Shown in pieces: positions 5,542 to 29,519 of a DNA stretch of 33,731 nt; position 1 is the first letter of the stretch; every line of letters starts with the position of its first letter. The notes beneath the pieces are model-generated. The model was given only the letters and a program-made list of their open reading frames with translations, did no database searches and was not told the origin of the DNA. Both the position numbers and the translations under genes were made by a program. The stretch lies in the NCBI GenBank assembly GCA_026387055.1, contig JAPLML010000066.1, positions 1 to 33,731 on the forward strand. Direction: 5' to 3'. The DNA comes from Planctomycetota bacterium (GTDB lineage: Bacteria > Planctomycetota > Phycisphaerae > FEN-1346).

Positions 5542-6374
5542 TCAGCAGATGCGCGGCAGGTCTTCGCCGTAGGGCATCTCGAGGACGCGTTCGCCGCCGA
5601 TCGGTGTACGGAGCGTGACTCGCGGACCGACCTCGGCTGGCGGCAGCACCTCGCCGATCACCGCCGCCTCGCGCCCGAGCGGGTGGTGGCGCATGGCCGC
5701 CAGCGCGGCAGCGCACTCCTGGGGCCGCGCCACAACGACGAACTTCCCCTCGTTCGCCACGTTCAGAACGTCCAGGCCCAGGGCATCGCACGCCCCCGCC
5801 ACGGCCGGCCGCACGGGCACCGACGCCTCGTCGATGCGGATGCGAACGTTGGCCGCCTCGGCCAGCTCGTTCACCGCCGCCGCCAAGCCGCCCCGAGACG
5901 CCGTCCCTTCGGAATGAGGCCGATGCCCGACGTATTGAGGAACATTTGGTCGGCGCTGCCGCGCTCCACAACCTTCGTGTCGCCACAGACCACCGGGACG
6001 CCGACCGACCTCGCCGTCGCAGCCGCCGAATCGAGCACCCGGGCCAGCACCGCCAGCGACAGCCCCTCCTCCAGAATGAGCGCGAGCGAAATGGCCAGCG
6101 GACGGGCCCCGAGGCACGAGAGGTCATTGACGGTGCCCGAGACGGCCAGGCGCCCGATGTCCCCGCCGGGAAACTCCAGCGGCCGCACGACGTAGGAGTC
6201 TGTCGTGAACGCCAGAGCCACCCCGTCCGCCTCGACCCGTGCGGCATCCGCAAGGCGCACGAGTTCGCCACTGGAGTCGCCCGGGGCGAACCGGGAGAGG
6301 ATCTCGCGCCGCACGAGGCTCATCGTCCGCTCTCCCCCGCCACCGTCGGCCAGGAGAATCACGTCGTCCGCCAT
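5542..6374 (-). pseudogene. hypE: hypE (hydrogenase maturation carbamoyl dehydratase) with internal deletion and frameshift
   Basis: The N-terminal part is in ORF 5871..6374 (MADDVILLADGGGGERT...CGDTKVVERGSADQMFLNTSGIGLIP). The C-terminal part is in another frame, ORF 5542..6117 (...RGGLAAAVNELAEAANVRIRIDEASVPVRPAV...NEGKFVVV...HPLGREAAVIGEV...EDLPRIC, ending in the HypE PRIC motif). About 60-65 codons are missing between them, judged against my recollection of E. coli HypE. Confidence 0.7.
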
Positions 6375-6438: not shown

Positions 6439-7278
6439 TCAGGACTTCTCGGAACCCTCGAGCTCCTTGCCGCAGTGGGGGCACCGCCGGCCGCGGCGCT
6501 TCTCGTGGTATTTCTCGACGAAGCCGGAACCCAGGATGCCCGCCGGCAGGGCAAACAGGCCGATCCCCAGTATGGCGACGAAGCCCGCCAGGACTTTGCC
6601 GATGGGCGTGATGGGGTACATGTCTCCGTAGCCGACCGTCGTGACGGTCGCGACGGCCCACCACATGGTCGCCGGCATGCTTGAGAATGCCTGCGGCTGG
6701 GCATCCCGCTCCACCAGGTACATCAGCCCGGAGGCCAGCACGACCAAGATCGCGACGATCACGAACGTGGCCACAAGCTCCCCGCGGCGATCCCGCACCA
6801 CGGCCACCAGGAGCCGCACCGACTCGGAGTAGCGGCCGATCTTCAGCAGACGCATCAGCCTCATCAACCGCAGCACCCGGATGAACAAGAGGTCCGTCGG
6901 GACCAGCATCGGTAGGTAGAAGGGCAGGACGGCCACCAAGTCCACCAGGGCCAGCGGCGTCAGAATGTACCGAATCCGACCGAGAACCGGCCTCTGAAAG
7001 CGCGCGTGGCCCGGCACCACCCAGAGCCGCAGCAGGTACTCCACCGTGAACACGGCGACCGAGAAAACCTCGAACCCCCAAAGCTGCCGGCCCCAGGCGA
7101 CCGACAGGTCCTCGACGGAGTCCACCATGACCGCGGTCACGTTCAGGATGATAAGGGCAATGAGGCCCACTTGGACCGCGTGGCCGAGCCGGTCGTCGGG
7201 CCCCGGTGCTTCAAGGATCTGAAAGAGGCGATGACGAAGCTGCCCGATCATGCCCTCCCCTTCTCGCCCCGCCCACAC
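6439..7278 (-). CDS. Voltage-gated-type potassium channel (6TM, TVGYGD filter)
   Basis: Has an S4-like segment RVLRLMRLMRLLKIGR and a selectivity filter ATVTTVGYGDM. The start is ambiguous: GTG at 7278 or ATG at 7251. Confidence 0.85.
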   Translation of the reverse strand: MWAGREGEGMIGQLRHRLFQILEAPGPDDRLGHAVQVGLIALIILNVTAVMVDSVEDLSVAWGRQLWGFEVFSVAVFTVEYLLRLWVVPGHARFQRPVLGRIRYILTPLALVDLVAVLPFYLPMLVPTDLLFIRVLRLMRLMRLLKIGRYSESVRLLVAVVRDRRGELVATFVIVAILVVLASGLMYLVERDAQPQAFSSMPATMWWAVATVTTVGYGDMYPITPIGKVLAGFVAILGIGLFALPAGILGSGFVEKYHEKRRGRRCPHCGKELEGSEKS

Positions 7279-7301
7279 CGGTCTAGCCGACGGGTCACGA
7301 T

Positions 7302-8267
7302 CTACAGCGTCTCGTAGCGGGCCACGGCGCGGAAGATGCCCGCGATCTCGTTGGGCCTGACAAATGTGGGCGCGTGCCGCTCGTTGAGCGGCTGAAGGCG
7401 GACCCGGTCCTCGGCGTCAAAGAAGACGCGTTTGAAGGTCGTCTCGCCGTCGGTCGGACCGCCGGTCATGGCGAACCGCACGAAGCAGTCGTCTCCGGAC
7501 CTGACCGAGGCGGCCGGGCTCAAGATGACCACGTCCCCCTCGTGGTACTTCGGCGCCATCGAGTCGCCGACCACGCGCACGGCAAAGGCGTTCGGGTCCG
7601 AGAGCTCCGTGGGCGCCGCCACGTATTCGTCGGCGATGCCCACCGGGTAGCCGAGGTCCGTGAAGTCCTGCGGATACCCGGCAGCCACCTTGTTGATGAT
7701 CGGGATCGCCCGGACCGCCGCCTGGGGCGTCTCGGCCCGCGCATCGCCCCACTCGGCCAGATGGTGCAGCAGCCCGCTGCGGTAGAGGGCATCGAGGTCC
7801 GCGACGAGCGCCGTCCCGTCCGGCTTCCCCTGCCCCGCACCGGGGGCCGCCTCCGCAGGCAGCGGTGCCGTATCCGGACTGCCGGGCCTCGCGCCCTCCC
7901 TTGCAGCCAAGAGCGCCCGAATCACCTCTTCCGTCGAGTCGAAGACCTCGCGGAGACGGGCGATCCGGGCCTTCACCGCCTCGGGAAGCGCCGAGAAGTG
8001 CGCCCGGGCCACAAGGGCGTCGCCCTCCAGCCCCAGGGCCTCGGCAATCTTCCGGACTTTGTCGTCTCGGGGCGGCGGCGCGTAACCTGTCTCAATCTGC
8101 GACAAGTACGACTTTGCCATCCCCGTCGCCGCCGACAGCATCTCCAGCGTCATGCCGCGCTTCGTCCTTGCCAGACGGACCTCTTGGCCGAAAGCAGCGC
8201 TCTCCGGGCTTATGCCAAGCAACTGGCGAAGGGCACCCAATTCCCTCAAGTTCTCTTTCAGTCCCAC
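7302..8267 (-). CDS. CI/LexA-like repressor (XRE-family HTH + S24 peptidase domain)
   Basis: The N-terminus has the HTH RTKRGMTLEMLSAATGMAKSYLSQIETG. The C-terminus has AVRVVGDSMAPKYHEGDVVI (Ser nucleophile) and ...TTFKRV (Lys). GTG start with GGAGA 7 nt upstream. Confidence 0.85.
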   Translation of the reverse strand: MGLKENLRELGALRQLLGISPESAAFGQEVRLARTKRGMTLEMLSAATGMAKSYLSQIETGYAPPPRDDKVRKIAEALGLEGDALVARAHFSALPEAVKARIARLREVFDSTEEVIRALLAAREGARPGSPDTAPLPAEAAPGAGQGKPDGTALVADLDALYRSGLLHHLAEWGDARAETPQAAVRAIPIINKVAAGYPQDFTDLGYPVGIADEYVAAPTELSDPNAFAVRVVGDSMAPKYHEGDVVILSPAASVRSGDDCFVRFAMTGGPTDGETTFKRVFFDAEDRVRLQPLNERHAPTFVRPNEIAGIFRAVARYETL

Positions 8268-8405
8268 GGCCTGTCTCCGCGACTTGGTTCCTGGATTTCG
8301 GTCGTCACCGGACCTTCTGTCGGCTCCCGGACATGGGTAGAGCTCAGCAATTCCAGGTTTTTTTCACTCCCCATCAACCATCTTGTCCGCAACCCAACCC
8401 GATCA

Positions 8406-8430
8406 TAAGTTTAGCACATTCCGAAACTTA
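8406..8430. promoter_or_regulatory. Inverted repeat TAAGTTT-N11-AAACTTA, candidate operator in the divergent switch region
   Basis: 7-bp perfect arms at 8406-8412 and 8424-8430. The arms overlap the -10 and abut the -35 of the candidate leftward promoter. CGAAACT also recurs at 8422-8428 and 8455-8461, 33 nt apart. Confidence 0.4.
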
Positions 8431-8435
8431 GTCAA
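8408..8435 (-). promoter_or_regulatory. Candidate leftward promoter (TTGACT-N16-TAAACT) for the repressor gene
   Basis: The minus strand reads TTGACTaagtttcggaatgtgcTAAACT. It lies in the AT-richer intergenic region upstream of the 8267 start. Confidence 0.35.
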
Positions 8436-8497
8436 GCGAGAAGCTCCTCGAAATCGAAACTAGACCACGCCTGCCAAAATAAGGCATCAGATTGTGT

Positions 8498-8525
8498 TTG
8501 ACGCAGAGTAAAAGTGTGGTATAAT
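8498..8525 (+). promoter_or_regulatory. Near-consensus sigma70 promoter (TTGACG-N16-TATAAT with TGn extended -10) for the rightward operon
   Basis: Reads TTGACGcagagtaaaagtgTGgTATAAT, with -35 at 8498-8503 and -10 at 8520-8525, about 29 nt upstream of ATG 8554. Confidence 0.65.
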
Positions 8526-8553
8526 AAGTAGCAAAGGTTGGCGGCTGGCACAC

Positions 8554-9102
8554 ATGGCCTACGGCATGCAGAACGGCGATGGCCTTACAAAGAGTGGCGG
8601 TTTGCTGGGCAGCAAACCGGCCACGCTGAGTTACGCACTACGGGAACACGATCTCCGATTGCTGCCCTTGAAGGAGAGGTGTCTCTTGCGCCTCCTCTAC
8701 TACCGCGGTGCAACGCAGCGCGAACTGGCAGGGGCCCTCGGAGTCAGCCGTGGGCGCCTGCGTCGCATGCTTCGCAGGGCACATCGGCGGGCCACGGACC
8801 CCCAGAACCTGGCTATCGTGCGGTGCTGGCGCCGCCTGACCGAACAGGAGCAGCGCGTGGTCCGCCTGAACTGCTTCTGGGGGCTGTCGCTCAGAGAGGT
8901 CGCGCGCGACGCACTCATCGCGATGCCACCTGTGGGCGGCAGGCCCGGCAGCACTGCCACGCTGACACAACTGCGGAGCATGATACGGGCAGTTCGGCGC
9001 AAGGCCCGGCGCCACGAGCGGCGGCGCGAGGGTAGCCGCCCCCGCACCGAGGGCATCGGGCAACCAATCACTTCGCCTGGTCAGGAGTCACAGGAAACGT
9101 GA
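8554..9102 (+). CDS. Sigma-70 region-4-like HTH regulator (two tandem r4-like HTH units), possible late-gene activator
   Basis: LPLKERCLLRLLYYRGATQRELAGALGVSRGRLRRML and LTEQEQRVVRLNCFWGLSLREVARD both resemble sigma region 4 / LuxR-type HTH. Its position ahead of the packaging genes resembles RinA/ArpU-type activators (analogy only). Confidence 0.55.
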   Translation: MAYGMQNGDGLTKSGGLLGSKPATLSYALREHDLRLLPLKERCLLRLLYYRGATQRELAGALGVSRGRLRRMLRRAHRRATDPQNLAIVRCWRRLTEQEQRVVRLNCFWGLSLREVARDALIAMPPVGGRPGSTATLTQLRSMIRAVRRKARRHERRREGSRPRTEGIGQPITSPGQESQET

Positions 9103-9382
9103 ACCGTATGCGAAAGCACGGGAGCGTCTCAAGCCGGTCCCCGTACAGCGCCCGAAGCTCCGCCAGGAGTGCTTCGCGCGAGGCGAAACCATCGAGCCGC
9201 GCGTCCTCCTCGGTCAGGGCCTCCGGGCGGACGTCCTCGAACGCCGTCACCAGGACCTTGCCCAACCCCGGTACGAACTCCACCTGGCCGGCGCGCAGCC
9301 GCCGCTTCGGCCAGATTCTCACCGTCTGCCGCTTGGCCCCCGACGCAATCGGTTCCAGAAACTTCTTCTTGAACAGGAGCAT
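9068..9382 (-). CDS. ASCH domain protein
   Basis: MLLFKKKFLEPIASGAKRQTVRIWP...LTEEDARLDGFASREALLAELRALY matches the ASCH (PUA-like) pattern. The internal ATG at 9382 is preferred over the track start at 9433. It overlaps the previous gene convergently by 35 nt. Confidence 0.75.
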   Translation of the reverse strand: MLLFKKKFLEPIASGAKRQTVRIWPKRRLRAGQVEFVPGLGKVLVTAFEDVRPEALTEEDARLDGFASREALLAELRALYGDRLETLPCFRIRFTFPVTPDQAK

Positions 9383-9431
9383 CCCTCGCCTCGGTTGCCG
9401 CGGCGACCCCCTCGGACGGAGGAGCATACGC

Positions 9432-10217
9432 ATGACCCTCTACACGATCAATCAAAAGTTCCAGGCCGCGCCCACCGGCCGCGCGGCCGAACCGTGCGGC
9501 GCGCGCAGACTCAAGGTGGCCGAGATGTTCGGCATCGGCCTCGACGAGTCCTATGAGGTCACGCTCTACCACGACCTCCGCCTCGACGTCCGCCCTGGCG
9601 ACGTGGTGTTCATCACCGGCCCGTCGGGCAGCGGCAAGAGCGTCCTCCTGCGCAATCTGGCCCGCGCCATCCAGGGGGAGCCGCCAACGGGGGCTCGCCT
9701 TGTGGACCTGGGGACCATCCACGAGGCGGGGCGCCGCGGCGACCGGCCTGTCATCGACCTTATGACAGGGCCTCTGGAACAGGCCCTGCGGCTGCTGAGC
9801 GCCGCAGGGCTGGCCGACGCGTTTCTGCTCCTGAGGACGCCGCAGGAGCTTTCCGACGGGCAGCGGTACCGCCTGCGGTTGGCCCTGGCGCTCGATGCGC
9901 TGCTGGGTGGCGCGGCTGAGGACGTGGCGCCGCACGGTTGCCCGCCCGCCGCGGCGGGCGGGCTGAGTGGAGAGGACGGCGGCCTGAATGTGCTGGTCGC
10001 CGATGAGTTCTGTTCCACGCTCGACCTGCTCTGCGCGCGGGCGGTCGCGTACCGCGTCCGCCGTCTGGCGACAACGCACGGCGTCACGGTCCTCGCCGCG
10101 AGCGCCCACGATGATGTCGTGGAGGACCTCGCGCCGGACGTCCTGGTCGCCAAGCACGAGGGGATCGGCATCGAGGTCATCTACGCCGATCCCGGCCGCG
10201 CCGAGGTGCAGCCATGA
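9432..10217 (+). CDS. ABC-type ATPase (stand-alone nucleotide-binding domain)
   Basis: Has Walker A GPSGSGKS, signature-like LSDGQRYR, Walker B VLVADEF and an H-loop-like SAHD. ATG at 9432 is preferred; the upstream part of ORF 9099..10217 is antisense to the ASCH gene. Confidence 0.8.
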   Translation: MTLYTINQKFQAAPTGRAAEPCGARRLKVAEMFGIGLDESYEVTLYHDLRLDVRPGDVVFITGPSGSGKSVLLRNLARAIQGEPPTGARLVDLGTIHEAGRRGDRPVIDLMTGPLEQALRLLSAAGLADAFLLLRTPQELSDGQRYRLRLALALDALLGGAAEDVAPHGCPPAAAGGLSGEDGGLNVLVADEFCSTLDLLCARAVAYRVRRLATTHGVTVLAASAHDDVVEDLAPDVLVAKHEGIGIEVIYADPGRAEVQP

Positions 10218-11065
10218 TCGCCGAGGCGAGGCCCGCCAAGCTGTGCACGCTCCTGGCGAACATCCGCATCGAACGCGGCACCCGCGACGACTGGCTGGCC
10301 CTGGCCCGCTTCCACTACCGCAGCCACGAAGCCGGGGCGGTGACGGGCATCTTTCGCATGGTGTATGACACGGGCGGAGTGCGGACTGCGGAGTGCGGAC
10401 TGCGAAATGAAAAGTCAAAGAGTAAGACGGCAACGATGCCTGACTTTTCACTCCGCACTCCGCATTCCACACTCCGCACTGTCCTTGTCGGCGCGCTCGT
10501 GTACAGCCGCTCGCCCCTGTCGCTGGCGGCCCGCGACCGCGCGACGGGCGGGAGGTACCGGACGGCCGGCATGGGCCGCACGGCCGCGGGGTACCTCATC
10601 AACCGCGAGCTTCGCATTATCAGCCGCGTCGTCCTCGCGCCGAACTGGCGCGGGCTGGGTCTCGCCAGCCGCCTGGTGGCCGAGACGCTCCCCCACGCGG
10701 GGACGCCCTATGTCGAGGCGATGGCCGCGATGGGCGAGATGCACCCGCTGTTTGAACGGGCCGGCATGACGGCCTATCCGCAGCGGCCCGCGCCACAGGG
10801 CGAGCGGCTCCGGGCGGCCCTGGAGGCCGCCGGCATCGACCGGGCGGCCCGCCGACGCGGCGCCGACCTCTTGCGGGCCATCGACGCCTTGCCCCCCGGC
10901 CCGCGCCGCCTCCTGGACCGTGAAGTCGAGCGGTGGGCCCGCTCCTACCTCGGCGCCAAGAACCACCGGACGTGCCGGCTCGGCCGCGAGCGGATGCTCG
11001 ACCTGGCGGCCCGGCATCTCGACAGCGTGCCGGTGTACTACCTATGGAGGAATCCACGCCCATGA
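10214..11065 (+). CDS. GNAT-like acyltransferase-fold protein carrying an in-frame repeat-element insertion
   Basis: RVVLAPNWRGLGLASRLVAE resembles GNAT motif A (R/Q-x-x-G-x-G/A). ATGA start/stop overlap with the ABC ATPase gene (10214-10217). Residues ~GVRTAECGLRNEKSKSKTATMPDFSLRTPHSTLRT are encoded by repeat copy A. Confidence 0.5.
   Translation: MIAEARPAKLCTLLANIRIERGTRDDWLALARFHYRSHEAGAVTGIFRMVYDTGGVRTAECGLRNEKSKSKTATMPDFSLRTPHSTLRTVLVGALVYSRSPLSLAARDRATGGRYRTAGMGRTAAGYLINRELRIISRVVLAPNWRGLGLASRLVAETLPHAGTPYVEAMAAMGEMHPLFERAGMTAYPQRPAPQGERLRAALEAAGIDRAARRRGADLLRAIDALPPGPRRLLDREVERWARSYLGAKNHRTCRLGRERMLDLAARHLDSVPVYYLWRNPRP
10374..10481. repeat. Heptamer-array palindromic element, copy A (inside the GNAT-like CDS, in-frame)
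   Basis: Left array GCGGAGT GCGGACT GCGGAGT GCGGACT GCGAAAT (10374-10408). Extended stem GAAAAGTCA...TGACTTTTC. Loop AAGAGTAAGACGGCAACGATGCC. Right array ACTCCGC ACTCCGC ATTCCAC ACTCCGC (10450-10477). Confidence 0.9.
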
Positions 11066-11523
11066 AAACCACGCCACGCCATCGCAAGATCGCCCGCACG
11101 ATCTGGGAATGCGGGGGCCGGCTCGAAGAGGCCGCCCAGCGAGAAGACGTCCGCCCGGACACGCTGCGCCGGTGGCTCGCCGACGGGGACTTCCGGGCCC
11201 TGCTGGCCGAGGACGCCCTGGAGCCGATCCTCCAGGCCACCAGCGCCATGCTCCGGTGGGCGCCGGTGGCCGTGGCGCGGCTCATCCAGGACCTGGAGGG
11301 CGAGTCGGCCGCCGACGCGCGCCAGGCGGCACGCGAAATCTTCAAGCTTGCCCTCGACACGCAGCGCGAACTCGCCCGCTCCGCCGAGGCGCCGCCCGGC
11401 GATGCCAAGCAGGCCGACGGACCCTCGGACGACCCCCTCACGCAGCGCGTGGCCGGCCTGACCGACGAACAACTGGCCCGAGTGCTCGCCATCCTGAACG
11501 AGACGAAAGGAGACCGCCGATGA
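11062..11523 (+). CDS. Terminase small subunit-like HTH protein
   Basis: 153 aa. The N-terminal HTH GGRLEEAAQREDVRPDTLRRWL is followed by a helical, acidic C-terminus. GGAGG lies 11 nt upstream. ATGA overlaps occur at both ends (11062-11065 and 11520-11523), and it lies two genes before TerL. Confidence 0.5.
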   Translation: MKTTPRHRKIARTIWECGGRLEEAAQREDVRPDTLRRWLADGDFRALLAEDALEPILQATSAMLRWAPVAVARLIQDLEGESAADARQAAREIFKLALDTQRELARSAEAPPGDAKQADGPSDDPLTQRVAGLTDEQLARVLAILNETKGDRR

Positions 11524-12245
11524 CCCTCCAGTGGATCCCCCTGGGCTGCCTGGAGCCGCACCCCGAGAACTCGAACCGCATGCCGCCGCGGCTCCTGGAG
11601 AAACTCAAGGCCCACATCCAGCGCACGGGCCTTTACGAGCCGCTGGTGGTTCGACCCCTTGAGTGCGGAGTGCGGAGTGCGGAATGCGAAGTGCAAGACA
11701 ACAGCAAGAACAGCGCGGCGGAGCCGAGTGCGGCGGAGTCTGCCTCTTTCACTCCGCATTCCGCACTCCTCACTCCGCACGTGCAGTACCAGATTCTCAA
11801 CGGCCACCACCGGGCCGAGGTGCTGCGCCTGCTCGGCCACACGCACGCAAGGTGCGACGTGTGGGAGGTAGACGATGCCGAGGCGCGGCTGCTCCTGGCG
11901 ACCCTCAACCGGCTGGAGGGCCGCGACGATTCGGCGGCGCGGGCGCGGCTCGTGGCGCGGCTGGCCGAGGGACGGTCGGCCGAGGAACTCTCGCGGCTGC
12001 TGCCGGAGCCGGCCGATGCCGTCGAGCGGCTGCTGGCCCTGGCGAAGCCGCCGCCGGCGCCACTCGCGCCCGACGAGGTGGAGGTGCCCGCGCGGCCGAT
12101 GACGTTCTTCCTCACCGACGAGCAGCACGAGGCGGTGAGCGAGGCGCTGCGCGAGGCGGCGGCGCCCGCCGCGCCGAAATGCTCGCGGGCCGAGGCGCTC
12201 GAGCGGCTCGCCCTCTGGTATCTCGAGGCCCGGAACCGCCGCTAG
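11520..12245 (+). CDS. ParB-like nuclease (ParB/Srx N-terminal) domain protein carrying an in-frame repeat-element insertion
   Basis: IPLGCLEPHPENSNRMPPRLLEKLKAHIQRTGLYEPLVVRPL ... YQILNGHHRAEVLRLLG carries the GxxR-type ParB motif. A 40-codon segment encoded by repeat copy B separates VVRPL from YQILNGHHR. Confidence 0.8.
   Translation: MTLQWIPLGCLEPHPENSNRMPPRLLEKLKAHIQRTGLYEPLVVRPLECGVRSAECEVQDNSKNSAAEPSAAESASFTPHSALLTPHVQYQILNGHHRAEVLRLLGHTHARCDVWEVDDAEARLLLATLNRLEGRDDSAARARLVARLAEGRSAEELSRLLPEPADAVERLLALAKPPPAPLAPDEVEVPARPMTFFLTDEQHEAVSEALREAAAPAAPKCSRAEALERLALWYLEARNRR
11661..11780. repeat. Heptamer-array palindromic element, copy B (inside the ParB-like CDS, in-frame, 120 nt)
   Basis: Left array GCGGAGT GCGGAGT GCGGAAT GCGAAGT (11665-11692). 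Right array ACTCCGC ATTCCGC ACTCCTC ACTCCGC (11751-11778). The loop differs from copies A and D. Confidence 0.9.
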
Positions 12246-12267
12246 CGCTCCGTCTCATGTGAAATGA

Positions 12268-12347
12268 GGGGTGCCACGGCCGGCTTGTCCGGCAGCGGCC
12301 GGGCGCACCCCCGGAGTCCCCACGGCGGGACAAGCCCGCCGTGTCAC
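12268..12347. repeat. Family-2 GC-rich palindromic repeat (GTGCCACGGCCGGCTTGTCCGGC ... CCACGGCGGGACAAGCCCGCCGTG), diverged copy
   Basis: Shares the CACGGCCGGCTTGTCCGGC / GGACAAGCC core with the perfect 33-bp inverted repeat at 19470-19555. It lies between the ParB-like gene and TerL. Confidence 0.7.
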
Positions 12348-12417
12348 AAAGACGTGCCGAAGCACGCAGGGTGGGTGCTGTGCATCCACCTTCAACTACA
12401 TCCGGAGAGATCTACTC

Positions 12418-14025
12418 ATGAGCGTTCGCCCTGTGCCGCCGGAGGAGCTTCGGTCGCGCCTCGCGCCGGCGCTCGCCTCGGCCCGCCCGAAGTCGCCCGA
12501 ATCGCTCTGGGAGTTCGTCCGGAGCGTCTACGGCCTGGCCGTCCCGCGGCGGGCGGTGTGCCCCGGCCACGCGGCGCCGATGGAGTACCTGGCGCGGGCG
12601 ATCCTGGCGCCGGGGCGGGACCTGGTGGTCTGGGCCTCCCGCGGCGGCGCGAAGACGGAGCTCGGCAGCGTGGCCGCCCATCTCGATTCCATCCTGCGGC
12701 CGGGGTGCCAGACGCGCATCCTCGGCGGGAGCCTGGACCAGTCTGAAAAAATGTATGAATATCTCATGCGCAAGTGGGGCGGGCCGTTCGCGGCCCTGCT
12801 CGCGCGCGAGCCGACGGCCCGGCGGACTGCGCTCGCCAACGGCTCGGCGATCGAGGTCCTGACCCAGTCGCCGAGGTCGGTCCGCGGCCAGCGCGTGCAC
12901 CGGCTGAAGTGCGACGAGGTCGACGAGTTCTCACCCGACGTCTGGCGGGCCGCGCAGTTCGTCACCCAGTCGAGCCCCGGCCGCGACGGCCGGTGGATCC
13001 CCGCCCAGATGGAGGTCTTCTCGACGCTCCACCGGCCGTTCGGACCGATGGCGGCGCTGGTCGACCGTCTCCTCCAGTGCGGAGTGCGGAATGCGGAGTG
13101 CGGAGTAAACGGCGAACCACGACAAGAGGGTGCGGCACGTTGCCAGTCCATTCCCCCCTCCGAACTCCGCACTCCACACTTGCTCAAGTGGTGTTTGTGG
13201 GAAGTCATCGAGCCCTGCCCCGCCGAGCGGTCGTGCAGCCGGTGCCCCCTGTGGACCGATTGCGAGGGCAAGGCCCGGCGGGCCGACGGCTACTTTCCGA
13301 TCGCCGACGCCATCGCCCAGAAGGCCCGGGCCAGCCGCGAGGCGTGGGAGGCCGAGATGCTGTGCCTGCGGCCCCGCGCGGACCGGCTGGTCTTTGCGGA
13401 GTTCGACCCCGCGCGGCACGTGGCGCCGCTGGCGTATGATCCGGGATTGCCGCTCTATCGCGCCATCGATTTCGGGTACGCGAACCCGTTCGTGTGCCTG
13501 TGGGTGCAGGTCAATGACGGCGGCGCGCGGCAAGGCGCCGGCAACGGGGGCGACCCGGATCTTTCGCGCCTGGAGCTTCGCGTCATCCGCGAGTACGTGG
13601 CCCGCGAGCGGCCCGTGGCCGAGCACGCCCGCGAGATGGGGGCCCGCGATCCGGGGCCGGTGCTCGCGACGTTCGCCGACCCCGCCGGCTGGCAGCGGTC
13701 GGACGTGACGGGCACCGGGCCGTGCCAGGAACTCGCGCGGCTGGGCATCCGCACCCGCACGCCGCGGGCGGGAATCCTGGAAGGGGTGGAGCTCCTGCGG
13801 CGGCTCCTCAAGCCGCGCGACGGCGGACGGTCAGGACTCGTGGTCGACCCGTCGAGCACGTGGCTCGTGCGGGCGTTCCAGGAGTATCACTGGGACGAGT
13901 CCGACGACGGCCGCCGCAACGAGCGCCCGGCCAAGGACGGGGCGGACCATCCGATTGACGCACTGCGATATCTCGTCACCGGACTCTTCCTCAAACGTGA
14001 AGCGGTGAGGGAGAGGAGGTGGTGA
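12418..14025 (+). CDS. Terminase large subunit (ATPase + RNaseH-like nuclease) carrying an in-frame repeat-element insertion
   Basis: Has Walker A-like WASRGGAKTE, Walker B RLKCDEVDEF and an FST coupling motif. The nuclease acidic residues fall in YRAIDFGYANPF, FADPAGW and DGADHPIDALRYLV. ATG at 12418 has GGAGAG 10 nt upstream. Repeat copy C is inserted after the ATPase domain. Confidence 0.9.
   Translation: MSVRPVPPEELRSRLAPALASARPKSPESLWEFVRSVYGLAVPRRAVCPGHAAPMEYLARAILAPGRDLVVWASRGGAKTELGSVAAHLDSILRPGCQTRILGGSLDQSEKMYEYLMRKWGGPFAALLAREPTARRTALANGSAIEVLTQSPRSVRGQRVHRLKCDEVDEFSPDVWRAAQFVTQSSPGRDGRWIPAQMEVFSTLHRPFGPMAALVDRLLQCGVRNAECGVNGEPRQEGAARCQSIPPSELRTPHLLKWCLWEVIEPCPAERSCSRCPLWTDCEGKARRADGYFPIADAIAQKARASREAWEAEMLCLRPRADRLVFAEFDPARHVAPLAYDPGLPLYRAIDFGYANPFVCLWVQVNDGGARQGAGNGGDPDLSRLELRVIREYVARERPVAEHAREMGARDPGPVLATFADPAGWQRSDVTGTGPCQELARLGIRTRTPRAGILEGVELLRRLLKPRDGGRSGLVVDPSSTWLVRAFQEYHWDESDDGRRNERPAKDGADHPIDALRYLVTGLFLKREAVRERRW
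13077..13180. repeat. Heptamer-array palindromic element, copy C (inside TerL CDS, in-frame)
   Basis: Left array GCGGAGT GCGGAAT GCGGAGT GCGGAGT (13079-13106). The right array is degenerate: (CCTCCGA) ACTCCGC ACTCCAC (13157-13177). It encodes CGVRNAECGVNGEPRQEGAARCQSIPPSELRTPH. Confidence 0.85.
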
Positions 14026-14026
14026 G

Positions 14027-14126
14027 GCAAGTGCGGAGTGCGGAATGCGAGATGAAAAGTCATAGAGTAAGACGGCAACGATGCCTCACTTTTCACTCTG
14101 CACTCCGCATTCCGCACTCCGCACTG
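14027..14126. repeat. Heptamer-array palindromic element, copy D (fills the whole TerL/PLD intergenic spacer)
   Basis: Same loop and stem as copy A (GATGAAAAGTCATAGAGTAAGACGGCAACGATGCCTCACTTTTC). I count about 5 mismatches in ~82 hand-aligned nt. It starts 2 nt after the TerL stop and ends at the PLD stop codon. Confidence 0.9.
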
Positions 14127-14654
14127 TCACCAAGGCGATTCGAGGGGGACGGGGCAATGGGGCCTCTGGTGGCAGGTCTGGCACATCGAGCCGGACCAGA
14201 CGGCCTCGAACAGGTCGGCCACGGTGTCCACGAGGACGGGGTCGTCGGTCACGAGGCCGATCTCGAAGTTGCGTCGGCCGGCGCTCTTGGCGCCGAGGCC
14301 CGCGCCGGTGAGGTTGGCGCTGCCGAGGTAGAGCCGCTGACCGTCGGCGATGGCCGCCTTGAAGTGCGTCCGCGGGCAGCGGCGCATGTGAAACACACCG
14401 GGGCGGACCGCCTTGAGTTCCTCGAGGAACGGCCCCGAAGGCACGCCGCTGTGCAGGATCCGCACCTCCACGCCGCCATCGCCCAGGCGCTCGAAGAGCC
14501 GGACGACGCTCTCCGCATGACCGCCGGGCTTGGGAATCCGCGTGGCCTTGAGTGTGGCGGTGGCCACCAGGAGGCTGTCCTTCGCCGACGGAATGAGGTC
14601 CGCCAGGACGCGGGCGTAGATGCGCTCGCCGGTGAGGTACTCGAACTGGGGCAT
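14127..14654 (-). CDS. Phospholipase D-family (single HKD, Nuc-like) protein
   Basis: HKD motif HFKAAIADGQRLYLGSANLT (HxK-x4-D-x6-GSxN). ATG at 14654 has GGGAGG 5 nt upstream and is preferred over the track start at 14747. Confidence 0.8.
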   Translation of the reverse strand: MPQFEYLTGERIYARVLADLIPSAKDSLLVATATLKATRIPKPGGHAESVVRLFERLGDGGVEVRILHSGVPSGPFLEELKAVRPGVFHMRRCPRTHFKAAIADGQRLYLGSANLTGAGLGAKSAGRRNFEIGLVTDDPVLVDTVADLFEAVWSGSMCQTCHQRPHCPVPLESPW

Positions 14655-14759: not shown

Positions 14760-16039
14760 TCAGATCACCCATCGCAGGATGTGCAGCAGGATGGCGACGG
14801 TCAGGAGGACGATCAGAATGATGGTTAACTGGTTGACGGCAAAGGGGTTGAGCGGAGGGGGCGTAGGCGACTCCTCTTCCTGCTCGCGGACGCCCTTGCC
14901 CTCGGCCAGACTCTCCATCCACTTGTCCTCTCGGTCAACACGTTCGCGGGCGATGCGCGGCGGCTGGCCGCCGGCGACGGTCCGCAGGTCCACCAGCAGG
15001 TCCTCGGTAGACTTGTAGCGGTCGGCGGGACGCTTGGCCATCATCACCTCGACGACCTCGCTGACGCCGGCCGAGAGCGCCTTGTTGACGTGGTCCGGGG
15101 GAATGAGCGGGCTCGTCACGTGCTTCTGCATCACCTGCTGAGGCGTTGGGGCCGTGAAGGGCGGCCGGCCGGTCAGCATCTCGTAGAACGTGGCGCCGAG
15201 GGAGTAGATATCGGCGCGGAAATCGATCTTCGCGCTCCCGACCACCTGTTCCGGGGCGATGTAGTACGGCGTGCCGAAGGCCTTGCCGAGCTCCTCAACG
15301 TCCACGTCGGCCACCTGGCGCGCCAAGCCCATGTCGGCCAGCTTCGCGAGGCCCTCCTTGGTAAGCATGATGTTCTTGGGCTTGACGTCGCGATGGATGA
15401 AGCCGCGAGAGTGCGCGTGGGCGAGGGCCTCGGCCATGTGGATGATGATCTCGAGGGCCCGCTCCTCAGGCAGCGGCCCGCCGCGCTCCTTCAGAAGGTC
15501 GTAGACGGTCGTTCCATCGACGAACTCCTGGATGAAGTAGGGGTAGCCCTCGGGGGTCTCGCCCGCGTCGATGGCCTGGACGATGTTGTTGTGGGAGAGC
15601 TTGGCCGCCGCCCGGGCCTCCTGGACAAACCGCTGCCGCGCCTGCGGGTCGCGGGCCGTCTTCGTCAGCATCACCTTGACGGCCACGATGCGGTCGACCG
15701 AGACCTGGCGGCCCCTGAAAACGATCGCCTGGCTGCCGCGGCCGACCTTCTCGAGAATCTGGATGCCGGGGATCGTGAGTTTCGGTGCGGCGGCCTCTTC
15801 CCCAGCGGAGGGGGGGCCGGGGCGGAAGGCTCTTTCGCCAGGAGCGCCAGGATCCGCCGGGCCTGGCTCTCCGTCAGGCCGCCGGCCTTGACGAGGGCCT
15901 CGGTCAGCGACATGCCCCGGCCTTCCTTCTCGGCCTGATTGAGGAGGCGGCGGGCTTCCTTGAGCTCGTCTTCGGTCGTCAGCCCCCGGCCGACCACGTA
16001 CTGTTCGAGCCGCTGTTCGTGTTCGGGTGATGCAGCCAT
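14760..16039 (-). CDS. Ser/Thr protein kinase with GspE-N/MshEN-like N-terminal domain and C-terminal TM anchor; reading frame interrupted at a C7 tract
   Basis: The N-terminal domain is in the ORF 15671..16039 frame (MAASPEHEQRLEQYVVGRGLTTEDELKEARRLLNQAEKEGRGMSLTEALVKAGGL...). The kinase is in the ORF 14760..16388 frame (ILEKVGRGSQAIVFRG...VAVKV...HRDVKPKN...DMGLA...APE). The frames meet at GCC CCC CCT (G-run 15810-15816 on the plus strand). Confidence 0.75.
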
Positions 16040-16082
16040 CGGTGCGCCGTGATTGGATTTCTCGAAAAGTTTCGTTTAGGCA

Positions 16083-16111
16083 ACTATCGCCGCCGCGGTA
16101 AAAAGAGTCAA
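16083..16111 (-). promoter_or_regulatory. Candidate promoter (TTGACT-N17-GATAGT) for the downstream kinase gene
   Basis: The minus strand reads TTGACTctttttaccgcggcggcGATAGT in the AT-richer spacer between the two kinase genes, about 45 nt upstream of ATG 16039. Confidence 0.35.
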
Positions 16112-16171
16112 CCAAAAACCGCGAATGTCGGCGATGCCTCGCCCACGCGGGCCGGCACGGCCACCCGTCGA

Positions 16172-18241
16172 TCAGTCCTTGACGCGCTTGAGGGTGACGG
16201 CCTTGAGGTTCATCAGGGCTTCCCGGGGCTTCCCCTTGGGCTTGACGGACACGGCGAGCTTGCCCGCCCGGGCGATTCTCACCTGGCCGATGGTCTCCGT
16301 CTTGAAGCTGCCCCATCCGCCGGTACTGCGGACCTTGCCGGCAAGTGCCTGATCGCCCACCGCCACGGTGTACTCGTTCCCGTCGCACTGATTGATGGCG
16401 GCGTAGGCAACCTCGACCGTGAACGTGCCCGGCTTCTCAACCGCCATCTCCCAACTGACCCAGTCGTCTTCATTGTACCAGAGGCCGATGTTATCTCTGT
16501 CGGCGGCTTGCTCATACCGGATCTTGCCATTGCTCCCGGGATGGACGGTGGCATGAGAGGCATTGAGGGTGATCGTGTCGCCGGCCTGAATCACCGTCTG
16601 GGCGGGTTGCTCGAGCTTGGGAGGCTCGGCGTCGTGCGGCTTGGGCTTCTCCGGCGGAGGGGGAGCATTCTTCAGGCGCTCCAGCGCCGCCCGGGCGTCC
16701 TTGGCCGCCTTGGTCGTCGGGAACCACTTGATGACGTTCTCGTAGGCTTCCACTTTCTGGCTGGGCAGGACATCGGCGGCCTCGGTGTCCTTCGCGTCCT
16801 TGAGCATGCCGGCGGCGTTCGCCTCATCCTCGCGGACGTAGTCGGGCACGTCCGCGCCCTGTTGTGTGGACGGGGCAGGAATCGGCGGCTTGGGCGCCGG
16901 CTGGGGGACGCCAGGCGGAGGCACCGCGGACACAGGAGGCGGCGGCGCCACGGATGGAGGCGGCGTCGGAGTGGCCGGTTGGCTCCCCCCCTTACTCATG
17001 TAGAGAACCAGCCCGACCGCCCCGGCGACAATCCCGACCACGGCACCGGCGCCCACGAGGAGAAAGAACTTCTTCCGGGACTTCGCGCCCTTCTCGCCGC
17101 CCGGTGTGCCTGCACGGGAGGGAACTCCCAGCGGCCCGGCCCGGCGCGAGCGGCGGCGCTCCGCTTTGGTGATCGGCCCGATCTCGCGGGCCACTTCCAG
17201 AACCGAGACGGTGGTCTCGACGCCCGAGAAATCCAGGGCGTCCAGGGCGGCGATGAACTCGGCCGCGCTCTGGTACCGGTCCTCCGGCTCCTTCGCCATG
17301 GCCTTGGCCAGCAGCGAGCAGAGCGAGGCCGGCAGGTCCGGCACGAACTGCCCCGCGTCCGGCAGCGGCTCGATCACGTGCTTGCGCATGATCTCCTGGG
17401 GCGTCGGGGCGGTGAAAGGCGGCCGGCCGGTCACCATCTCGTAGAGGGTGGCGCCCAGGGAGTAGATGTCGGTCCGGAAATCGGGAGGCGGGTCGCCCGT
17501 CACCTGCTCCGGCGAGATGTAGTACGGCGTGCCGGAGGCCTTCCACTCCTTGCCGTCCTCGGCGGCGGCGACGTGGCGCACCAGGCCCATGTCGGCAATC
17601 TTGACGACGCCCTCGCCCGTCAAGAGGAGGTTCCTGGGCTTGATGTCGCGGTGGATGAAGCCGCGCGAGTGGGCGTAGCGCAGGCCCTCGGCCGCCTGGC
17701 GGATGATGGCCGCCGCCTCGGCCGGGTCGAAGCGTTTGCGGACCGTCAGCATCTCCGCCAGCGACCCGCCGTCCACGTACTCCATGACGATGTACAAAGT
17801 GTTCTTCAGGAAGCCGATCTGGTGGATGGTGACGATGTTGGGGTGGGCCAGTTGAGCGGCGCTCCGGGCCTCATGGATGAACCGCTGCTGGCTCTCGGCA
17901 TCGCCGGGAGCGCTGGCGTGGAGGATCTTGACGGCCACCGTCCGGTCTGTGGCCTCTTCGTGACACTTGTAGACGACGGCCTGGCTGCCGCGGCCGATCT
18001 TCTCCAGGAGTTTCAGGCCGGAGGTCTGGACGTCTTTGGCCTCCGCATCGTCGCCGAGCGCCCCGACGACGTGATGGGCCTTGGCCGCGAGCACGCCGGC
18101 GCGGATGAGGGCGTCGGTGAGCGGGAGCTCGCGTCCCTCCTTCTCGGCCGCCGCGAGCAGGCGGCGGGCCCCCTCGATTTCGTCCGTGGTCAGAAGGCCC
18201 TTCTCGAGAAGGTGCTGCATCAACTCATCCGGTGACGGCAT
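16172..18241 (-). CDS. Ser/Thr protein kinase: GspE-N/MshEN-like N-domain, kinase, TM helix, Pro-rich linker, C-terminal carbohydrate-binding-module-like beta domain
   Basis: Kinase motifs are LLEKIGRGSQAVVYKC, VAVKIL, HRDIKPRN, DMGL and SPE. The TM helix is FFLLVGAGAVVGIVAGAVGLVLYM. The C-terminus ...VRSTGGWGSFKTETIGQVRI... resembles CBM6/35-type modules (recollection, not searched). Confidence 0.85.
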   Translation of the reverse strand: MPSPDELMQHLLEKGLLTTDEIEGARRLLAAAEKEGRELPLTDALIRAGVLAAKAHHVVGALGDDAEAKDVQTSGLKLLEKIGRGSQAVVYKCHEEATDRTVAVKILHASAPGDAESQQRFIHEARSAAQLAHPNIVTIHQIGFLKNTLYIVMEYVDGGSLAEMLTVRKRFDPAEAAAIIRQAAEGLRYAHSRGFIHRDIKPRNLLLTGEGVVKIADMGLVRHVAAAEDGKEWKASGTPYYISPEQVTGDPPPDFRTDIYSLGATLYEMVTGRPPFTAPTPQEIMRKHVIEPLPDAGQFVPDLPASLCSLLAKAMAKEPEDRYQSAAEFIAALDALDFSGVETTVSVLEVAREIGPITKAERRRSRRAGPLGVPSRAGTPGGEKGAKSRKKFFLLVGAGAVVGIVAGAVGLVLYMSKGGSQPATPTPPPSVAPPPPVSAVPPPGVPQPAPKPPIPAPSTQQGADVPDYVREDEANAAGMLKDAKDTEAADVLPSQKVEAYENVIKWFPTTKAAKDARAALERLKNAPPPPEKPKPHDAEPPKLEQPAQTVIQAGDTITLNASHATVHPGSNGKIRYEQAADRDNIGLWYNEDDWVSWEMAVEKPGTFTVEVAYAAINQCDGNEYTVAVGDQALAGKVRSTGGWGSFKTETIGQVRIARAGKLAVSVKPKGKPREALMNLKAVTLKRVKD

Positions 18242-19415: not shown

Positions 19416-19589
19416 GGGGGCACGGCCTGCCGTGGTATGTGTTTAGCGAGTGTGCCATTGTCCCGATAGCAGGTGTGGCACGGCCGGCTTGTCCGGCCGT
19501 GGCAGAGCGCCGGCCACATTCCCCACGGCCGGACAAGCCGGCCGTGCCACACCTGCCGGGGTACGCTAAACACGTACATGCCGTGCCCC
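19416..19589. repeat. Nested GC-rich palindrome (family 2): perfect 33-bp inverted repeat 19470-19502 / 19523-19555 inside an imperfect outer inverted repeat
   Basis: The inner arms CAGGTGTGGCACGGCCGGCTTGTCCGGCCGTGG and CCACGGCCGGACAAGCCGGCCGTGCCACACCTG are exact reverse complements with a 20-nt loop. The outer arms are GGGGCACGGC...GTGTTTAGCG and CGCTAAACAC...GCCGTGCCCC. Confidence 0.9.
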
Positions 19590-27098: not shown

Positions 27099-27102
27099 AC
27101 GG

Positions 27103-27186
27103 CAGTGCGGAACCCGGAATGCGGAGTGCGGAGTGAACAGCGAAGGCAACGACATACTGTTTAGCGGGCAGCCGAAGGCGACCGCG
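27103..27186 (+). repeat. Half-element repeat (heptamer array + GAACAGC + GTTTAGCGGGCAGCCGAAGGCGACCGCG), same family as 3008-3076
   Basis: GTGCGGAACCCGGAATGCGGAGTGCGGAGTGAACAGC... has only the GCGGAnT-type arm. The 3' 27 nt are nearly identical to the minus strand of 3008-3034. It lies between the SDR stop and the bioF-like start. Confidence 0.8.
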
Positions 27187-29467: not shown

Positions 29468-29519
29468 GGCTGACTCCTTACGTGTCGTTCGGTTCGCGCG
29501 CGCCGCGCCGGCGCGGCGG

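Follow-up and report, generated by a model that had tools for sequence, protein, structure and literature searches.

A phage-derived regulatory and DNA-packaging island of Phycisphaerae, likely one half of a two-locus element resembling gene transfer agents or PBSX

The stretch of DNA analyzed here, called the window, comprises 33,731 nucleotides, and its list of open reading frames contains an island which had originally been predicted, from the letters alone, to be a head-less packaging island under a CI-like switch. This description was confirmed, with all named cassette genes present at the following positions:

7302 to 8267, minus strand: CI/LexA-type repressor with XRE helix-turn-helix and S24 autopeptidase (Pfam HTH_3/HTH_31, Peptidase_S24 3e-18; phrog_4 5.7e-30).
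8408 to 8435, minus strand: promoter-like site of the repressor gene, TTGACT-16-TAAACT (TTGAC..TAAACT arrangement kept in five orthologous intergenic regions).
8498 to 8525, plus strand: near-consensus promoter P_sig, TTGACG-16-TGgTATAAT (11 of 12 positions match; extended -10).
8554 to 9102, plus strand: late-gene regulator with sigma region-4-like/Q-antiterminator-like helix-turn-helices (Pfam Sigma70_r4 3.4e-10; weak Q-like match, phrog_79 2.8e-4).
9068 to 9382, minus strand: ASCH-domain protein, antisense to the operon (Pfam ASCH 2.2e-8).
9432 to 10217, plus strand: soluble single-domain ABC-type ATPase (phrog_293 1.6e-27; Pfam ABC_tran).
10214 to 11065, plus strand: GNAT-like protein with an in-frame hairpin-repeat insert (phrog_886 5e-11; ATGA overlap with the ABC gene).
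10365 to 10490: hairpin repeat built from heptamers, within the GNAT-like gene (DNA fold -41.7 kcal/mol, z -9.5).
11062 to 11523, plus strand: putative small terminase subunit TerS (N-terminal helix-turn-helix; relatives match TerS PHROGs).
11520 to 12245, plus strand: protein with ParB/Srx fold, of nuclease or CTP-switch type, carrying a hairpin insert in frame (phrog_723 5e-15).
11655 to 11785: hairpin repeat inside the ParB gene (z -7.0).
12418 to 14025, plus strand: large terminase subunit TerL, intact (phrog_2 4.6e-17; the ORF opens at 12271).
13068 to 13185: degenerate hairpin repeat in a hypervariable loop of TerL (z -1.5).
14127 to 14654, minus strand: single-HKD PLD/Nuc-like protein (PLDc_2 2e-12; HxK..D..GSxN motif).

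The island thus runs from the XRE+S24 repressor over the divergent promoter to the r4/Q-like regulator, the antisense ASCH gene and the genes for the ABC ATPase, the GNAT-like protein, TerS, the ParB-like protein and TerL. Direct reading of the sequence bore out the three ATGA start/stop overlaps (10214, 11062 and 11520) by which genes had been said to be joined, and no portal, capsid, tail, integrase or tRNA genes were found within the window, as had been claimed for the first four of these. The presence of an ASCH gene was likewise correct, but its placement on the operon strand was not, as it lies on the opposite strand, head to head with the ABC gene. The HypE gene adjoining the cassette is disrupted in the window. 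At least six other Phycisphaerae contigs carry the eight-gene cassette next to HypE at the same chromosomal position, namely L001 (464-kb contig), the P0076 contig (311 kb), L003, L007, L008 and L011.

The repressor retains a LexA-like Ala-Gly cleavage site ('KVAAGYP') as well as the Ser ('GDSM') and Lys ('FKRV') of the catalytic dyad, and an orthologue was found in every locus of group A, in which the cassette lies apart from the structural genes described below. Its divergent orientation to a near-consensus promoter, as originally stated, holds: the repressor/regulator region contains two promoter-like sites, compared to 0.3 expected from shuffles, and a strong TTGACx-16/17-TATAAT/TATACT promoter is kept in L007, L008, L001, L003 and L011. 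The regulator had been called sigma-like, which is supported for region 4; however, a domain search detected no sigma region 2, and Pfam Phage_antitermQ is matched above the cut-off by the orthologue in L063 (6.6e-8). Judged by these domains, the regulator is an r4/Q-like protein and not a full sigma factor. A promoter motif common to the cassette and the portal operon of the structural locus could not be established by motif comparison.

In the ASCH protein, the YqfB-type K-x-x-T-x-R motif (PMC6972931) is present as 'GAKRQTVR', and in relatives its start codon lies 12–20 nt from that of the ABC gene. Walker A, signature, Walker B and H-loop of the ABC ATPase are all intact, and the protein is 35–39% identical to the products of 'ABC transporter' genes located upstream of the terminases in phages SSU5, nickie and RHEph10. 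For the GNAT-like protein the direct Pfam match is below the cut-off (E 0.005); the top five PDB matches of its family profile are all GNATs (E 0.004–0.04), aligned on the R-G-L-G-L-A acetyl-CoA motif, and the protein is homologous to SSU5 gp129 and nickie gp155. The ABC, GNAT-like and ASCH proteins form an accessory module which the element has in common with SSU5/nickie-type phages; no ASCH gene was detected in SSU5/nickie/RHEph10-type phages. One possible role of this module would be that of an ATP-dependent acetyl 'writer' paired with an ASCH 'eraser'.

TerS of the window itself gave no direct match in profile searches; its relatives match phrog_2538 (6.7e-14) and phrog_7344 (3.7e-6), and the family is kept beside TerL in groups A, B and C. 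In the ParB-like protein the 'NGHHR' motif is intact, and its orthologues match Pfam ParB_N. TerL, previously described as apparently intact, proved to be so: 17 homologues share its Walker A (RGGAKT), Walker B (KCDEVDE) and two nuclease Asp motifs without change, the nuclease motifs align with those of a Thermus phage terminase (5oe8), and the alignment contains more than 200 invariant columns, Walker A and B included. Among the best 120 of 1178 TerL homologues, which are 49–93% identical, all named ones belong to Planctomycetota.

TerL of the window is 66–93% identical to that of the six Phycisphaerae contigs, and the cassette proteins share 34–98% identity with their orthologues, with most values between 58 and 79% in distant pairs. 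This matches the flanking host proteins (ORF6N, ion channel and HypE; 65–74%). The dN/dS values of the cassette range from 0.2 to 0.8 (median about 0.3), with dS near saturation for distant pairs and few substitutions in the closest pair. The cassette is under purifying selection, in accordance with the original view that its genes are still selected. The lack of structural genes in the window, the repeat insertions within three genes and the disrupted neighboring HypE might suggest an inert prophage remnant that became fixed by chance and is slowly decaying. The repeat insertions are real, as had been noted, but they are in frame and limited to variable loops; moreover, all eight ORFs are intact in seven loci at the dN/dS values given above, the invariant TerL columns include the catalytic motifs, and translational coupling is kept. 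On these conservation data the remnant, which had been among the explanations initially proposed, is largely refuted and must be considered very unlikely.

The PLD gene, originally placed at the end of the cassette, is real, yet it is not a conserved cassette member. Only the window, L007 and L008 carry it, whereas four of the seven cassette loci (L001, L003, L011 and the P0076 contig) lack it, and it is a lineage-specific neighbor outside the core system. This bears on the idea that the packaging enzymes were exapted for a capsid-free role, such as nuclease/translocase defence or DNA processing, perhaps together with the PLD protein, and that the capsid locus is unrelated. The resemblance of the PLD protein to DISARM DrmC (1e-12), weak matches of the ABC P-loop to MADS components and the separation of cassette and structural locus in group A would be in line with such a role. 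However, the DrmC match reaches only 48 bits, far under the cut-off of 133, no DrmA, DrmB or MTase genes are present around the PLD gene, and PADLOC models match the cassette genes only through generic P-loop or HTH domains. A defence module with the PLD protein, as one of the early options had it, is contradicted because the gene is absent from those four loci, and a capsid-free role in general seems quite improbable given that in groups B and C the capsid locus lies next to the cassette, and that the two complement each other in gene content.

Portal, capsid and tail genes, which had been proposed to be sought elsewhere, were found in relatives. On contig CAZGKW010000017.1 of GCA_964526295.1, the cassette (approximately 44.0–50.9 kb, minus strand) is separated by 21.6 kb of ordinary host genes from a divergent 15-gene cluster (approximately 72.5–85.6 kb, plus strand) encoding portal (Pfam SPP1_portal), scaffold, an SU10-type capsid (phrog_1328 at 2.4e-74), tail/fibre-like, spanin-like and holin-like proteins. 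The cluster ends with the holin-like protein, which has two TM segments, and a TM protein/lipoprotein pair resembling spanins. Both loci are also present on a 310,831-bp contig, matched by sample and contig key, probably on a 211,878-bp contig, and in MAG FJ288. The structural locus is flanked by AA_kinase in seven genomes and shows omega values of 0.08–0.48 over all 15 genes. Neither an endolysin nor an unambiguous tail tube or tape-measure gene was identified in it, several of its proteins have no detectable homologues, and the structure model of protein s337 is of moderate confidence only, with weak fold matches. A tail-gene block has been exchanged between near-identical loci. In group B, tail and lysis genes abut ASCH-ABC-TerS-TerL, while in group C (L029, L032, L035, L056, L063, L066, L072 and L088) the packaging operon lies divergent from and directly upstream of the portal gene; here arrangements vary among members and host genes are interspersed, in L063 inside the element, and some members could be ordinary prophages. 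From these relatives and the shared synteny of the left flank, a structural locus would also be expected in the window's own genome. A structural module on the same contig in related strains had been named as a finding that would point to a simple assembly break or remnant. Such a module does exist, but it does not reflect an assembly break: the two loci are kept apart by ordinary host genes, and each retains its position across species.

The capsid gene occurs at no fewer than 586 loci in species-representative Planctomycetota genomes; the best 80 of these at least 586 loci are all from MAGs, most labelled Planctomycetota and the rest under other automatic names. Island and structural cluster might be pieces of still-mobile prophages of an active temperate phage family of Planctomycetes, as phage homologues exist for all genes, the layout differs between lineages, a tail-gene block has been swapped, and the capsid gene is found at 61% identity on two IMG/VR contigs. 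On the other hand, the TerL clade is absent from IMG/VR (nothing above 36% identity to invariant TerL peptides) and the closest cultured phages are at most 32–35% identical. No integrase or replication Pfam families were found within 10 kb of either locus, nor any excisionase or tRNA/att sites near them. The same chromosomal position and flanks across species differing by 25–35% in host proteins, the 21.6 kb of host genes between the halves and the host genes inside the element in L063 also make an active phage unlikely. A PICI-like satellite taking over helper-phage capsids, another of the early options, shares with some PICIs the superficial layout of a repressor and TerS without capsid genes. 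It is contradicted by the absence of mobility genes (integrase, primase/replication genes and att sites), by the island's own TerL and by cognate capsid genes that are chromosomal and conserved, and vertical synteny at a fixed position argues so strongly against it that a satellite appears extremely improbable.

The originally listed option of a dispersed gene-transfer-agent-like system is favored by the structural cluster on the same contig, the further two contigs and one MAG with both loci, and their adjacency in other lineages. Because relatives carry the matching capsid, portal, tail and lysis cluster approximately 20 kb away, the island can be read as the control-and-packaging half. It is therefore likely the locus for regulation and DNA packaging in a GTA- or PBSX-like element under CI/LexA-type control, which derives from a tailed phage, is split over two loci and is inherited vertically. 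In such an element, P_sig would be kept shut by the repressor with its intact self-cleavage site, and DNA damage or another trigger of S24 self-cleavage would derepress it, leading to transcription of the r4/Q-like late regulator. Transcription would probably run on through the antisense ASCH gene into the ABC, GNAT-like, TerS, ParB and TerL genes as one operon, since the gene layout leaves no space for a further promoter and ATGA overlaps join three pairs of genes. The regulator may then switch on the structural locus, which in relatives lies approximately 20 kb to the left, beyond the window; capsids would be filled with DNA by TerS, ParB and TerL, and particles freed by lysis. As the element lacks integrase and replication genes and its halves are separated by host genes, the packaged DNA would be expected to be largely host DNA.

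Among known systems, the RcGTA-type GTAs of Alphaproteobacteria, which are viriforms, similarly consist of head, tail, packaging and lysis genes of phage origin that reside in the chromosome at more than one locus; they are passed on vertically throughout a large clade, are subject to purifying selection and lack integration and replication genes. The RcGTA activator GafA reportedly has a sigma-region-4-like domain, comparable to that of the regulator described here. In contrast, there is no detectable sequence relationship, the capsid here is of the SU10/DUF5309 type and TerL belongs to a different clade; an element-encoded S24 repressor and Q/r4-like regulator stand in place of CtrA, quorum sensing and GafA, and ABC, GNAT-like, ASCH and ParB accessory genes are present. 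PBSX, the SOS-inducible defective prophage of Bacillus subtilis, encodes an XRE-type repressor and Xpf, a positive factor resembling sigma; its late operon opens with the terminase genes, and its particles carry host DNA. Compared by domain types alone, the element shares this repressor, positive factor and terminase-led late operon, whereas PBSX forms a single contiguous cluster, has a contractile tail and is restricted to Bacillus, and the element has two loci, an S24 domain on its repressor and no recognizable tail sheath or tape measure. SSU5/nickie/RHEph10-type siphophages likewise have ABC ATPase (35–39% identity), phrog_886 GNAT-like, ParB-like and DNA-binding/TerS genes directly upstream of TerL; in these complete viruses, however, the portal follows TerL and a helicase is adjacent, and TerL and capsid of the element are only distantly related to their cultured-phage counterparts. 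In the lambdoid CI/Q switch, too, a strong promoter is divergent from the gene of a self-cleaving S24 repressor, and a Q-family/r4-like regulator is encoded directly upstream of late (packaging) genes, but Cro, CII, N and replication genes are missing here, the regulator is the first gene behind the repressed promoter, and antitermination is putative. Taken as a whole, the element would represent a candidate new gene-transfer-agent-like system in Planctomycetota, ancient and conserved in Phycisphaerae.

The original prediction had described a packaging island without head genes, and this description holds at the level of the window, as every gene that it named is present as an open reading frame and the motifs and ATGA overlaps (10214, 11062 and 11520) can be read straight from the sequence. 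The G+C content of the window is about 68%, with 0.695 for the island and 0.66 and 0.68 for its flanks. An Rfam search of the window gave no match, and terminator scans of it found none.

Features of the cassette in the window (coordinates, strand, description)
7302-8267, minus: repressor, XRE helix-turn-helix plus Peptidase_S24 (3e-18), main phage-repressor PHROG at 5.7e-30
8435-8408, minus: promoter-like site of the repressor itself, TTGACT-16-TAAACT (sequence match)
8498-8525, plus, divergent from the repressor: P_sig, near-consensus promoter TTGACG-16-TG-TATAAT, 11 of 12 consensus positions
8554-9102, plus: Q/r4-like regulator, sigma region-4-type helix-turn-helices, weak Q-antiterminator-like PHROG match
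9068-9382, minus (opposite strand): ASCH domain protein, K-x-x-T-x-R catalytic motif kept
9432-10217, plus: ABC ATPase
10214-11065, plus: GNAT-like protein, phrog_886 family
11062-11523, plus: TerS, relatives match TerS PHROGs
11520-12245, plus: ParB-like protein
12418-14025, plus: TerL, phrog_2 at 4.6e-17, homologues carry PF17289

The repressor keeps a LexA-like Ala-Gly site (KVAAGYP) as well as the Ser (GDSM) and Lys (FKRV) of the dyad, and by these residues it is predicted to be of the self-cleaving LexA/CI S24 type. For the regulator, Pfam and NCBIfam detected region-4-type helix-turn-helices alone and no sigma region 2; its TIGR02937 score lies slightly below the cut-off and covers the C-terminal end of that model only, and an orthologue in a distant relative exceeds the Pfam threshold for Phage_antitermQ. 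The assignment as a sigma-70 family sigma factor was rejected, as region 4 stands without region 2. ASCH proteins have been characterized as N4-acetylcytidine amidohydrolases (PMC6972931; bioRxiv 10.64898/2026.02.27.708502). The GNAT-like protein matched Pfam GNAT with an E-value of 0.005, under the cut-off, and the five top matches of its family profile in the PDB were all GNATs (E 0.004-0.04), aligned on an invariant acetyl-CoA motif R-G-L-G-L-A. A homologous pair of ABC and GNAT-like genes is found in the phages SSU5, nickie and RHEph10, where ParB genes accompany it immediately ahead of the terminase. That the ABC protein with its GNAT partner and the ASCH protein form a writer and eraser of acetyl marks is a testable guess, nothing more.

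TerS had no direct match of its own, and a set of 1.84 billion representatives contained only 25 relatives of it; these relatives match TerS PHROGs at 6.7e-14 and, for a relative of 49% identity, at 3.7e-6, and an hhalign comparison of TerS with nickie gp153 was not significant. In TerL, the motifs RGGAKT, KCDEVDE, LDFGYANP and DHPIDALRY are invariant, and the motifs of the ATPase (Walker A and B) and of the nuclease are intact; with a Walker-type ATPase and the catalytic Asp residues of an RNase-H-like nuclease, it is a large terminase. Between the two domains (residues ~258-282) lies a Cys cluster, WCLWE..C....C..C.....C, which is invariant in 17 of 17 aligned homologues, is bordered on either side by a hypervariable loop and resembles a zinc-ribbon-type insert.

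TerL has 1178 homologues, and the 120 of them that were listed share 49-93% identity with it; those with a name are all from Planctomycetota/Phycisphaerae MAGs, with many of the contigs between 50 and 460 kb long. The eight cassette genes occur in one shared order at seven loci (the window, the P0076 contig, L001, L003, L007, L008 and L011), with HypE flanking the cassette in six and the seventh, L007, beginning at the repressor; the right flank varies. In distant pairs, most cassette proteins are 58-79% identical to their orthologues, compared with 65-74% for flanking host proteins, the regulator and TerS being less conserved (34-72%). The original prediction had taken the intact reading frames as a sign of continued selection. 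This was borne out across the seven loci, where dN/dS (NG86) is 0.2-0.8 for every cassette gene, with a median of about 0.3 and dS near saturation in distant pairs, and where the cassette genes are thus under purifying selection. In the closest pair, the window and L007, nearly all differences fall in in-frame repeat inserts. A decaying remnant, one of the four explanations offered originally, is rejected by the kept gene order, the dN/dS values and the confinement of differences to inserts in this pair. The fixed chromosomal position and a divergence like that of host genes point instead to vertical inheritance of the element.

Another of these explanations joined the terminase to the adjacent phospholipase-D-like (PLD) gene (14127-14654, minus) in a defence function. 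Among the seven loci, only those of the window, L007 and L008 have the PLD gene after TerL, which makes it a neighbour in one sub-lineage rather than a component. Its identity as DISARM DrmC was likewise rejected: the NCBIfam DrmC score is 48 bits against a cut-off of 133, no DrmA, DrmB or methylase partner genes were found, and the gene is missing from four cassette loci. PADLOC gave no defence-system assignment.

The portal, capsid and tail genes, which the original prediction had noted as absent beside the terminase and proposed to seek in the rest of the genome, were found at a partner locus in relatives. In two distant TerL relatives (L002 and L004, 51-55% identity), an unannotated run of genes lies directly upstream of ASCH-ABC-TerS-TerL. 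A gene of this type used as query led to a homologue on a 310,831-bp contig that also bears a cassette-type TerL (same sample and contig key), where it sits at a separate locus in a cluster headed by genes for a portal (SPP1-type) and a major capsid protein (SU10-type). On contig CAZGKW010000017.1 of GCA_964526295.1, the cassette (minus strand) spans ~44.0-50.9 kb and a cluster of 15 genes (plus strand) ~72.5-85.6 kb. They are divergent, across a gap of 21.6 kb that contains HypE, hydrogenase-type, kinase and glycosidase genes.

Products assigned in the 15-gene cluster of CAZGKW010000017.1 (all plus strand)
Portal, SPP1-type
Probable scaffold
Capsid protein, phrog_1328 at 2.4e-74
LamG-domain protein
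337-aa protein, carbohydrate-binding/tail-fibre-like beta-sandwich in the predicted model
TM-plus-coiled-coil protein and lipoprotein, resembling a spanin pair
Holin-like protein with two TM segments, conserved

Further evidence for co-occurrence comes from a 211,878-bp contig that appears in both the TerL and the capsid match lists, and from the locus-tag prefix FJ288, which is common to matches of both. An AA_kinase gene flanks the structural locus in seven genomes, and all 15 structural genes show an omega of 0.08-0.48 (NG86, with dS near saturation in distant pairs), so that they too are under purifying selection. TerS and TerL in the window and the portal, capsid, scaffold and tail/fibre-like genes at the partner locus of relatives are phage-like genes carried on the chromosome. 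For the 337-aa protein, an AlphaFold model (pLDDT 73) gave a carbohydrate-binding-module/tail-fibre-like beta-sandwich as sole signal, with low TM-scores, so that a role as endolysin is unsupported. PDB profile searches with the structural proteins of 603, 246 and 216 aa and with TerS yielded nothing useful, except for a weak Ig-like signal in the 246-aa protein.

Two near-identical relatives, L024 and L026, differ in an uneven manner along this locus (proteins named by their size in aa). The head genes, s337 and the lysis genes, comprising portal, scaffold, capsid, s216, s337, s142, s172, s90 and s74, are 92-99% identical (dS 0.05-0.13), and a middle block of s282, s246, s81, the LamG protein, s603 and s213 is only 72-89% identical (dS 0.4-0.8). 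This tail/receptor-binding block appears to have been exchanged by recombination.

In a scan of one genome per species, the capsid gene was present at at least 586 loci. The best 80 of these are all from MAGs, closed MAG chromosomes included, most of them labelled Planctomycetota and chiefly Phycisphaerae and Sedimentisphaerales. Mapping all element proteins onto the capsid loci revealed three layouts: a split one with host genes between the two loci, to which the window's lineage belongs (group A), a fused one in which tail and lysis genes adjoin ASCH-ABC-TerS-TerL (group B), and a back-to-back one in which the packaging operon is divergent from and directly upstream of the portal gene (group C). 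Groups A and C share one orientation, and the most economical history therefore starts from two divergent operons that host DNA later drove apart. In L063, a low-GC group C locus, the element encloses two host genes: one resembling pseudouridine synthase (1734-2618), between TerS and TerL, and one for a PfkB sugar kinase (6625-7581), between regulator and portal.

A functional temperate prophage was rejected, as the halves are separated by 21.6 kb of host genes and no integrase, replication gene or tRNA was found; searches for integrase and replication Pfam families within 10 kb of either locus gave none. The same fate befell the phage satellite (PICI) of the original prediction, as integrase, replication initiator and att sites are missing and the island keeps a fixed position that is inherited vertically. 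Searching IMG/VR (2.9 million contigs) with the invariant TerL peptides retrieved nothing closer than 36% identity, the capsid gene occurred in only two IMG/VR contigs, and identity to cultured phages was at most 32-35%. Of the four explanations, it is the dispersed GTA-like system that fits, given the structural locus 21.6 kb from the cassette in a relative; satellite, remnant and PLD-linked defence do not.

With regard to control, the promoters are conserved in relatives. The start codons of ASCH and ABC are just 12-20 nt apart there, which leaves no room for a promoter there, and in group C the regulator gene stands directly before ABC on the same strand. Therefore, the plus-strand genes from regulator to TerL most simply form one transcript from P_sig. 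Self-cleavage of the repressor would open P_sig, whereupon the Q/r4-like protein might activate or antiterminate late transcription, including that of the distant structural operon; TerS, ParB and TerL would then load capsids with DNA, and the holin-like and spanin-like proteins would free the particles. About 70 nt upstream of the portal ribosome binding site, a block A[T/A]CC[A/G]G-N16-17-TAAG[T/A]C followed by a CTTAYCGC-like element is conserved in several group A loci (~7320-7385 in the relative L012, with equivalents in L022 and L024-L027) and represents a candidate late promoter or regulator site. This block was not convincingly found in the cassette loci, so that the regulatory link between both loci is a putative one. 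The palindrome AAGACACTAAGTGTCTT upstream of the portal in L012 was discarded as an operator candidate, since it recurs throughout that MAG as a REP-like repeat and the window has no copy of it.

The window also contains several repeat families. Hairpin elements ~100-130 nt long, with arms built of tandem (GGAGTGC)n and (GCACTCC)n heptamers, lie at 10365-10490, 11655-11785, 13068-13185 and 14025-14130, with a half copy at 27098-27143. Since 7 is coprime to 3, each frame of the arms reads GVRSAEC or ALRTPHS, without a stop on either strand. Three of the hairpins are in frame within the GNAT-like, ParB and TerL genes, with diverged inserts at the same sites in relatives (L007 and the TerL of P0070), resembling the Rickettsia palindromic elements, which lie inside ORFs. 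A second palindromic family is represented at 19469-19556 by a perfect inverted repeat of 34 nt and at 12267-12298 by a related arm in the ParB-TerL spacer, where relatives have other variable hairpins. A 25-nt palindrome-containing motif ending in TAA, CGCGCCCAGCAAGCTGGGCGGCTAA, is present in four copies (1177-1201, 2965-2989, 28373-28397 and 29499-29523). Among the neighbouring genes, HypE (5545-6374, minus), with AIRS domains and a PRIC domain at its C-terminal end, is interrupted. Compared with the L008 orthologue, the parts for residues 1-162 and 225-342 lie in two different frames and some 62 residues are lost, which points either to a pseudogene or to an error of assembly. Tandem Ser/Thr kinase paralogues at 14760-16388 and 16172-18241 (minus) are 70-85% identical in blocks of DNA in a 2.26-kb register, and the pair is conserved downstream of PLD in L007. 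At 24366-25338, a tandem array of 93-nt (31-codon) repeats with copies 61-76% identical lies within a long ORF and probably encodes a HEAT/PBS-type repeat protein.

Taken as a whole, the element is probably a bipartite domesticated phage and a candidate addition to the domesticated phages and GTAs. Closest in logic are GTAs and PBSX, with phage-derived chromosomal genes at more than one locus that are vertically inherited and under selection, with no self-transmission genes found within 10 kb of either locus, and with a repressor and an activator (sigma-like or Q-like) in control. The defining trait of a GTA is that it packages and delivers host DNA; true gene transfer of this kind by the element seems rather unlikely. 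PHROGs, Pfam and phage-genome searches gave links to phage families only and no sign of kinship with any known GTA, and in the literature searched no GTA has been reported from Planctomycetota or Phycisphaerae. The independent GTA lineages recognised so far number, to our knowledge, only about five (RcGTA, BaGTA, VSH-1, Dd1 and VTA). We tentatively propose, while holding it doubtful, an unrecognised and independently domesticated GTA lineage across hundreds of Phycisphaerae species, with two divergent operons, an SOS-type S24 repressor plus Q/r4-like switch, and an ABC+GNAT acetyl 'writer' and ASCH 'eraser' marking or licensing nucleic acid for packaging.

For annotation, the finding cautions that a terminase island which looks 'head-less' may belong to an element split in two, of which it is one half. 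TerL peptides ([KR]CDEVDE and WCLWE[VT]I) and capsid peptides (FTGKATY and YESDFGV[QC]) can serve as survey markers, and a simple inducible switch is predicted. The enigmatic 'ABC transporter' gene pair of SSU5/nickie-type phages, made up of ABC and phrog_886, becomes tied to DNA packaging, which makes the function of this module testable. Phycisphaerae are abundant in sediments and soils, and, if true, a particle system conserved in hundreds of their uncultured species would give DNA exchange or kin-directed lysis a major route that has so far gone unnoticed.
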